A stretch of DNA of 63,106 nt, filler included, from Bonamia ostreae (lineage: Eukaryota), in NCBI GenBank assembly GCA_040357525.1. It is 45 parts of 45 records of this genome, joined end to end, with 100 filler letters (N's around TTAATTAATTAA, not from the genome) between each part and the next. Parts side by side here need not be neighbours in the genome. Positions count along the whole stretch, not along the records: positions 47,865 to 49,160 come from JBDODL010002099.1; 44 more parts are not named here. One strand, given 5' to 3'. Of this stretch, positions 48,071-49,160 are shown one piece after another. Position 1 is the first letter of the stretch. The number at the start of each line of letters is the position of its first letter. The notes below the pieces were generated by a model, which was not told the DNA's origin, searched no databases, and saw nothing but the letters and a program-made list of their open reading frames with translations. The position numbers were made by a program, and so were the translations under genes.

Positions 48071-48317
48071 TCAGAGTTGGATATACTGTTCATCACGACC
48101 ATTAAATTTTAAAAGATCGTAAAAATAATCGTCAAAACTTTTCTGAAGCCCAGATCTAACGCCCTCTCTCTGAAACATTGTCTGCACATCATTATTTTGT
48201 ACTTTCTGACGATGCCTCTCTTGTTGCTGCAAACTCGACTAAAAGATTATTCGAAAACCACTCGCGAGCTCCTTTGCAATTTGTACGGATATGCGAGTTA
48301 ATGGTGGATTTCGACAT
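48071..48317 (-). CDS. RPS29: 40S ribosomal protein S29 (uS14); missed by ORF track (protist)
   Basis: [53 protein letters not shown] after removing the 20-nt intron 48239-48258. The last exon (YIQL*, intron 48086-48138) is tentative. Confidence 0.95.
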
Positions 48318-48435
48318 GTAAAACCTAATGGCTCTTAAATTTTAGCTTTTGTGTTAATGGCTAACAATATAAATCGTTTTTTAACTTAGGATTTTTTTAT
48401 CGGACTGTTTTATAATATTCGTTCTATAGATTTTA

Positions 48436-49160
48436 ATGGCGTCTTTGTTTCAAAACGATTCGAACGCTGTCGAAGTTTCCAGTTCCGCAAATCCAGCAAA
48501 TCCGCAGAGCACAACACAGTTCGGGCGATTGAACAGTTTGCGCGTTGAAGACATTTTCGAGTTGTGGAAAAACGAAATCGATCAAAACGAAAAATGTTTC
48601 AAAAGGCAAATTGCTTCCGCGAAAAAAACCGATTTGTCTTTAATCCGCGACAGCAACCAGATAAAACAACTGGGCAAAGAAATAAATGCTGCGAAAAACA
48701 GCTGGAGCCAAAACGGAAAATTTACAGATAGTATTCAAGTATAATTTTAATAATTTTTTGTGTGCCAATTTTGCTCTTTAAAACAAAAAATGTCGAAAAT
48801 AATAAAATTCGAATTTAAGAAAAACAAACAACATCTGTCTAAAAGTTTGGCTGATATCGAAAAAACGATTTTACAGCAAACAAGATTTGCCGAACCAGAC
48901 GAAAAATCTGGATTTAAAGAAGAAATGTTTAGTAATATTTTTCCGACATTTGATAATAACAAAATTTTATAAAAATGACAGATTTGAAGGCGTTGAAAGA
49001 TTGGAAAAAGAACTAATCGAATTTTCGCTTAAAATAAAAGAATATTTGGACAAATCAGACGATTTCAAAATAGAGCGCAGATTGACTTCTCAAACAGTTT
49101 TCTCGAAAATTTAAGGTCGCGGAGATGATGAAAAAGCAGTCAAACAGAATAAATTCGTTG
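48436..49160 (+). CDS. Nup62/Nsp1-like coiled-coil nucleoporin, 3'-partial (protist)
   Basis: LNSLRVEDIFELWKNEIDQNEKCFKRQIASAKKTDLSLIRDSNQIKQL fits the Nsp1_C pattern (L....eeI...W..eL....k.F..q......D..Li.n...I..L). Three introns, including 49097-49115 (19 nt). Confidence 0.7.

Follow-up and report, generated by a model that had tools for sequence, protein, structure and literature searches.

The window analyzed here is the whole 63,106-nucleotide stretch of Bonamia ostreae DNA, in which more than 40 unrelated contigs of ∼1.3 kb are strung together with N spacers, so that the genuine genomic neighborhood of the genes described below is confined to positions 47865 to 49160. This contig (G000:C2098, 1296 nt, 33% GC, N spacers on both sides) carries a gene for the ribosomal protein RPS29 on the minus strand and, head-to-head with it, a homolog of the nucleoporin Nup62/Nsp1 on the plus strand. 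The contig was compared with contigs from four sequencing runs, of which X1 is DNA and X4, X6, and X7 are RNA (X4 by guess, yet clearly spliced), and the results refer to the matches listed. Run X1 spanned 47866–49159 as a single piece with seven differing letters and one gap; the head-to-head layout is thus not an assembly join, and a chimeric contig was rejected for the same reason. A contaminant origin was judged unlikely in view of the GC content, the short GTT-type introns, and the Bonamia label on the encoded protein. These Logan contigs drop rare variants and do not show 5′ ends, so the exact 5′ end of Nup62 is not mapped by them. RPS29 was covered by runs X6 and X7 and Nup62 was not, but each of these runs holds only 3 million contig letters and the missing Nup62 is uninformative.

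On the basis of the RNA contigs, Nup62 is a spliced, expressed gene that starts with the ATG at 48436 and runs to 49160 and beyond. Exon 1 (48436–48738, plus strand, present in the X4 RNA contig) encodes 101 residues, comprising a polar leader of ∼30 residues and then the first coiled coil; exon 2 (48820–48926) encodes the end of this coiled coil and a linker, exon 3 (48982–49096) the second coiled-coil segment, and exon 4 (49116–49160), which is open at the contig end, probably part of the third. The three intervening introns are all spliced in run X4, intron 1 (48739–48819, 81 nt, GT..AG) and intron 2 (48927–48981, 55 nt, GTTT..CAG) being seen as joints and intron 3 (49097–49115, 19 nt, GTTT..AAG) as a 19-nt gap. 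The spliced frame provides 190 open codons up to the contig end, past which both X1 and X4 extend. The database entry for the encoded protein (MHBO_003541, 180 aa, P0002) retains the 19-nt intron 3 and so terminates early, at residue 180. A sequence-only reading of this DNA had delimited the Nup62/RPS29 unit as 48317–48700; its layout holds, but its end coordinate does not, as Nup62 continues beyond 49160.

The divergent RPS29 gene is read from the minus strand. Its exon 1 (48259–48317, from translation, with the ATG at 48317) is followed by a 20-nt intron (48239–48258, GTTT..TAG) that appears as a 20-nt gap in X7, by exon 2 (48139–48238), which encodes the zinc-binding core and matches Pfam Ribosomal_S14 at 32.8 bits (cut-off, 27), by a 135-nt intron (48004–48138, GT..AG) whose joint 48003/48139 is present in both X6 and X7, and by exon 3 (47969–48003) with the last codon, the stop, and the 3′ UTR, polyadenylated at 47969 according to a poly(T) loose end in X6. 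The 135-nt intron sits directly before the final codon. Run X7 carries RPS29 RNA up to 48352, and the 5′ ends of RPS29 and Nup62 may touch or overlap.

Nup62/Nsp1 normally possesses a long N-terminal FG domain that forms part of the permeability barrier of the pore. In the Bonamia gene the Nsp1_C coiled coil begins ∼30 residues past the ATG at 48436, preceded by one FG dipeptide (residues 29–30, 48520–48525, plus strand, from translation), just as the sequence-only reading had described it and as both translation and Pfam bear out. With this one FG in 190 residues and no PF13634 match, the protein does not show the long FG-repeat disorder of an FG-nucleoporin; moreover, at least one FG arose in 27% of 5000 shuffles of the protein, so that the single dipeptide is background. 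The spacer between the two start codons (48318–48435, 118 nt), which may serve as a shared promoter region, has no FG codons. The motif TTYGG is absent from it, its two short plus-strand ATG frames are both terminated by stops, and none of the three plus-strand frames contains an FG between the contig start at 47865 and the ATG at 48436. The earlier claim that an RPS29 start 118 nt upstream leaves no space for an FG exon was thus upheld, the spacer being FG-free and no upstream exon being spliced on. An FG domain could in principle be joined at the RNA level, either from a distant exon, with RPS29 nested in the intron, or by trans-splicing, and a 23-nt GTT..TAG stretch (48407–48429) does place an in-frame acceptor just ahead of the ATG. 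That stretch is unspliced in the X4 contig, however, which runs unbroken from 48292 to 48738 through the interior of RPS29 exon 1, the whole spacer, and Nup62 exon 1. No RNA joint or loose end lies upstream of the Nup62 ATG among the X4 matches listed, the contig and its frames upstream are FG-free, and the partner Nup54 (described below) would need the identical trick; we find such joining scarcely credible.

The identity of the protein was examined by profile, sequence, and structure comparisons. Exon 1 alone matched Pfam Nsp1_C (PF05064) at 29.5 bits (cut-off 24.1, E = 7.3e-7), with the match located at 48487–48702 on the plus strand (27.8 bits in the genome search), and the 180-residue model scored 36.4 bits against the same 24.1-bit cut-off over residues 18–122, so that the family assignment made earlier passed the profile search. 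A PDB sequence search returned 11 matches, the best three being Nup62 (E = 7.7e-4, 1.2e-3, and 3.5e-3) and eight of the 11 being Nup62/Nsp1. The alignment of Bonamia residues 34–160 with residues 17–143 of Xenopus 5C3L chain C (E = 7.7e-4) is gap-free over 127 residues and spans the first two coiled-coil segments of the solved Nup62. The Atlas feature search gave 0.94, with Nsp1_C as the best family match in 10 of 10. In the PDB alignment, residue 310 of the 522 in human Nup62 pairs with Bonamia residue 14, so ∼296 N-terminal residues are missing relative to the human protein. AlphaFold, run with a four-sequence alignment, predicted residues 1–26 to be disordered and placed helices at 23–33, 37–123, 131–161, and 168–179 (mean pLDDT 75), with breaks that coincide with those of known Nup62/Nsp1. 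This single-chain model consists of long helices and gave no Foldseek matches; VIA-align paired it with Nsp1 (5CWS_C) at Z 7.3 and an rmsd of 1.4 over 91 aligned residues, a value tied with those of unrelated coiled coils (best Z 7.7). On the basis of the sequence comparisons, we assign the gene as the Nup62/Nsp1 of Bonamia ostreae.

The genome searched is fragmentary (10.3 Mb in 7503 contigs), and one Nup62 locus was found in it. The Nsp1_C profile confirmed its only candidate (1/1), and a Lotharella Nup62 query gave one match among two candidates, at the same locus, returning it reciprocally. These two differently seeded searches revealed no separate FG-bearing Nup62 in this fragmentary genome; the single FG-less locus and the Nsp1_C match support the original description of a Nup62/Nsp1 without an FG domain. 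Mammalian NUP62CL is a short Nsp1_C protein without an FG domain that exists as a paralog alongside full-length NUP62, and the Bonamia gene might be an FG-less paralog of this kind, with a normal FG-bearing Nup62, and likewise a normal Nup54, residing in the unassembled part of the genome. Plants, chordates, and arthropods have many short Nsp1_C-only clusters (199–243 aa), which favors such a paralog; short Nup62 entries are therefore not rare in themselves, and what sets the present case apart is that the start is fixed, that one copy was detected, and that Nup54 is of the same type. In addition, FG-rich DNA breaks contigs, with FG genes being cut at the start of C135 and at the end of C447, and a housekeeping set is covered to just 65.9% by a published B. 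ostreae assembly (PMC11069148). The paralog explanation nevertheless requires two duplications plus two assembly gaps, and it has to accommodate one Nup62 locus in two differently seeded searches and one Nup54 locus in one search. Furthermore, the FG region of C447 is followed not by a coiled coil but by a motif that resembles the one preceding the Nup98 GLEBS, and the relative P0003 starts equally short. Unlike NUP62CL, whose domain layout is not described in the available part of PMC8124116, the Bonamia protein is the only copy detected, and we give the paralog little credence.

A candidate Nup54 partner was located with the Pfam Nup54 profile, which pointed to G000:C1372 at 23.1 bits (under the cut-off), the one Nup54 locus found in one search. 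The annotated protein at this site (P0010, 259 aa) contains no FG and scored 23.5 bits against the same profile, below the cut-off of 30.5 (E = 6.1e-5). All six of its PDB matches were Nup57/Nup54 chains, with residues 23–247 aligned to residues 10–236 of Chaetomium Nup57 over 225 residues (E = 4.1e-4). Only the full protein was matched in this way, as single Nup54 exons had no significant match in the PDB and exon 2 had no support from Atlas. P0010 begins at its coiled coil, with an in-frame stop 10 codons upstream of its start, and its residue 11 pairs with residue 192 of Dictyostelium Nup54, making it ∼181 residues shorter at the N terminus. On sequence grounds and with a predicted start, we conclude that the Nup54 of this genome is also without an FG domain; the occurrence of an FG-less Nup54 beside an FG-less Nup62 is new here. 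A TAF7 gene (PF04658, 61.3 bits) lies head-to-head with Nup54 at a distance of 88 nt (G000:C1372, 1115 minus and 1204 plus), a compact arrangement that mirrors that of Nup62 and RPS29. Our literature search, which was mostly of open-access articles with supplements excluded, brought up no natural case in which Nup62 and Nup54 are both FG-less and no papers on Ascetosporea nucleoporins or the Bonamia ostreae nuclear pore. The words nucleoporin and nuclear pore have zero occurrences in the main text of PMC11069148, and the accessible portions of PMC2951903 and PMC6371224 contain no case of an FG-less nucleoporin.

Nup62 residues 30–180 were modeled together with P0010, giving a complex score of 0.63 compared with 0.00 for the best of three controls; the runs agreed in at least 62% of contacts and the partner pLDDT was at least 60. 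The mark used for this score is attained by 51/78 solved and 2/108 mismatched pairs, the corresponding values for eukaryotes being 71/105 and 2/126. Contacts in the model extend along both rods in a heptad pattern, so the two rods are predicted to pair in register, although Nup62–Nup54 is a textbook pair with solved trimers, so that the score may stem from the solved structures and shows likeness, not binding. The trimer anticipated by the sequence-only reading could accordingly be modeled for its Nup62–Nup54 pair, whereas its Nup58 subunit was not found in the genome. Searches of the fragmentary genome with profiles for Nup58/Nup49 (Nup49_C and Nucleoporin_FG2), Nic96, and Nup88 gave no match, nor did the Nup98_GLEBS profile; three of these five profiles also failed to match any control, and the negative results do not imply absence. 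Nup155 is present.

FG domains do occur elsewhere in the genome. The nine matches to PF13634 fell on contigs C135 and C447. On C135, a single frame contains 33 FG, and the autopeptidase domain of Nup98 lies downstream of them. C447 carries an N-terminal FG gene (1240–1, minus strand) with 23 FG in one frame and GTT introns, truncated by the contig end. The motif after its FG region resembles the one that precedes the Nup98 GLEBS, and C447 is for this reason probably the 5′ half of the same Nup98 as C135. A third gene, on C596 (2900–1037, minus strand), was missed by PF13634 and came to light with four tight FG patterns, all of whose matches were listed (72, 71, 23, and 14). It has 24 FG in one C-terminal exon, spaced in regular units of nine residues, and its basic tail has a motif like that of Nup153/Nup1; it is probably a Nup153/Nup1-like basket-type gene. 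Forty flagged contigs, chosen by eye, were translated and the others were judged from the printed match, so the FG census is a lower bound; within it, polar frames with at least six FG per 100 residues were found among 86 loci only on C135, C447, and C596. Looser FG patterns gave excessive background (834 and 464 matches, 100 listed). Contigs C6, C159, C1817, and C4866 also have FG-dense frames, which we did not accept as FG-nucleoporins because of their short length or non-polar composition; the strand opposite the C1817 frame is a proline-rich open frame. Some minor features were noted in the same contigs and elsewhere. Within the Nup98 FG region of C135, an FG-free insert of ∼100 residues at about 520–850 is charged and hydrophobic. 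At 2662–3800 of C135, the frame continues for no more than a few hundred bases past the autopeptidase domain (HFT motif) and, by eye, a cyclin-like gene comes next; Nup96 may therefore be separate from Nup98 in Bonamia. A gene truncated by the contig end on G000:C338 (4250–4010, minus strand) carries at its C terminus five tandem 12-residue repeats with one FG each.

These data bear on whether the FG mass of the trimer has moved onto one subunit, either an FG-rich Nup58 (possibly C447) or a new FG-bearing scaffold. Such a relocation fits the observations, differing from our preferred reading in mechanism. Nup58 was matched by neither of two Pfam models, and it is the most divergent subunit in the account given in PMC6371224; the N-terminal FG gene on C447 is of unproven identity, and the Pfam FG search overlooked C596, so other FG genes can escape. 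A precedent has been suggested for Tetrahymena, where the GLFG repeats of Nup308 are proposed, in the relevant part of PMC5450191, to compensate for an FG-poor Nup62. The four full pattern lists and the 40 translated contigs yielded only three polar FG-dense loci, however, and C447 and C135 share an SLFG/N-rich repeat type that fits two halves of one Nup98, and we regard relocation as rather unlikely.

We consider it likely that the N-terminal FG domain was lost from the sole detected Nup62 of Bonamia, which acts as a coiled-coil scaffold together with an FG-less Nup54, with Nup98 as the main barrier. The Nup62 and Nup54 rods would form the core of the central-channel trimer and serve as scaffold only, docking, if established NPC biology applies, on the inner ring (Nup93/Nic96), and would probably serve the cytoplasmic Nup214–Nup88–Nup62 complex as well. 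The permeability barrier and the binding sites for transport receptors would come mainly from Nup98, helped by the Nup153/Nup1-type basket protein and possibly by an undetected Nup58. In a genome undergoing compaction, the trimer's FG tails could be discarded with transport preserved if, as in yeast, Nup98 covers the same function. The sequence-only reading had suggested a reduced or remodeled channel; the FG-less Nup54 argues for remodeling, but the term reduced has to be narrowed, as both rods are intact and Nup98 and the basket-type gene have long FG regions, so that a weak barrier is not implied. A bolder version, which we put forward tentatively and on balance hold to be somewhat doubtful, is that no subunit of the trimer carries FG, Nup58 being lost or itself without them, that almost all FG come from Nup98 and a single basket protein, and that the same probably applies to other haplosporidians.

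Comparison with known systems places this arrangement in context. The canonical Nup62–Nup58–Nup54 (Nsp1–Nup49–Nup57) trimer (PDB 5C3L, 5CWS, and 5IJN) is similar in its Nsp1_C domain, its coiled coils, and the modeled Nup54 partner, whereas the Bonamia Nup62 and Nup54 are without FG regions and Nup58 was not found. The trimer is usually drawn as the lining of the channel, and which FG domains form the barrier is a long-running question. A parallel is found in engineered yeast ΔFG and GLFG-only strains, which likewise combine FG-free trimer rods with retained Nup98-type domains (PMC4704724); the Bonamia case differs in being natural, in extending to two of three subunits, and in retaining a basket-type FG protein. 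Within the portion of that paper dealing with these strains, the nsp1/nup49/nup57-ΔFG strain is viable and a growth defect is not noted, doubling takes 6.1 h when FG of the nuclear face are lost in addition to those of the trimer, and it takes 10.3 h when all asymmetric FG are lost. The 6.1-h slowdown fits with Bonamia keeping its C596 basket-type gene. By this analogy, the Bonamia results suggest a pore filter that rests mainly on Nup98, like that of the engineered yeast mutant. Among SAR protists, Tetrahymena TtNup62 (39 kDa) is also FG-poor but, as described in PMC5450191, retains an N-terminal region of FG and FX repeats, which the Bonamia protein does not have. FG remodeling in a parasitic protist is likewise described in the consulted part of a preprint on Entamoeba histolytica (bioRxiv 10.64898/2026.09.13.750810), where it is the Nup98 FG region that is reduced, in contrast to the long Nup98 FG and stripped trimer of Bonamia; Nup62, Nup54, and Nup58 candidates are listed there with no domain detail.

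A natural loss in at least two trimer subunits, with the long Nup98 FG kept, would be evolutionary evidence for a Nup98-centered barrier and would separate the scaffold role of the trimer from its FG role. An Entamoeba Nup54-like protein in an earlier paper is reportedly also without FG. The nuclear pore would join the machines that are streamlined in Ascetosporea. Haplosporidians divide with a closed nucleus, and the need for trimer-driven pore dilation would vanish under such division. In human cells, FG cohesion of the trimer was proposed in 2026 to dilate pores after open mitosis, with conservation in yeast and plants (PMC13561880), a proposal that weighs against a trimer serving as scaffold only. 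A fully FG-free trimer, if true, would represent a natural near-GLFG-only pore and allow a direct test of trimer FG in dilation and full channel width.

The age of the short form was approached through relatives of the Bonamia protein. A phmmer search of 1.84 billion representatives gave five matches including the query itself; word-index searches for ascetosporean orthologs returned Bonamia proteins only (1/173 and 1/115 candidates) or none (0/7998), and none of 432 pattern matches was confirmed in a JGI metagenome scan. P0003, a 73-residue call on a 571-nt contig, is 46% identical to Bonamia Nup62, has the same first three residues, and contains 38 residues with no FG ahead of the conserved Trp; it matched no PDB chain on its own. 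The comparison suggests that the short form is common to this relative. Some Nup62 entries from other lineages are likewise short or FG-poor, and a short FG-poor Nup62 could be an old rhizarian trait unrelated to parasitism. Consistent with this, in P0005 and P0007 of Lotharella globosa the conserved Trp is preceded by 36 FG-free residues; the corresponding stretch of P0009 is 105 residues long with four FG, and P0004 (435 aa) has one FG in a low-complexity N terminus of 256 residues. These entries are mostly transcript or short-contig calls, however, and in no case is the start pinned down by a neighboring gene; P0006 is visibly a 5′-shortened P0009 and P0008 begins at the Trp, both being truncated. 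With truncation evident within this set, the short entries are compatible with an older origin but do not prove it, and we judge the rhizarian explanation improbable. In P0004, the FG motifs appear to be lost and the disordered domain retained.
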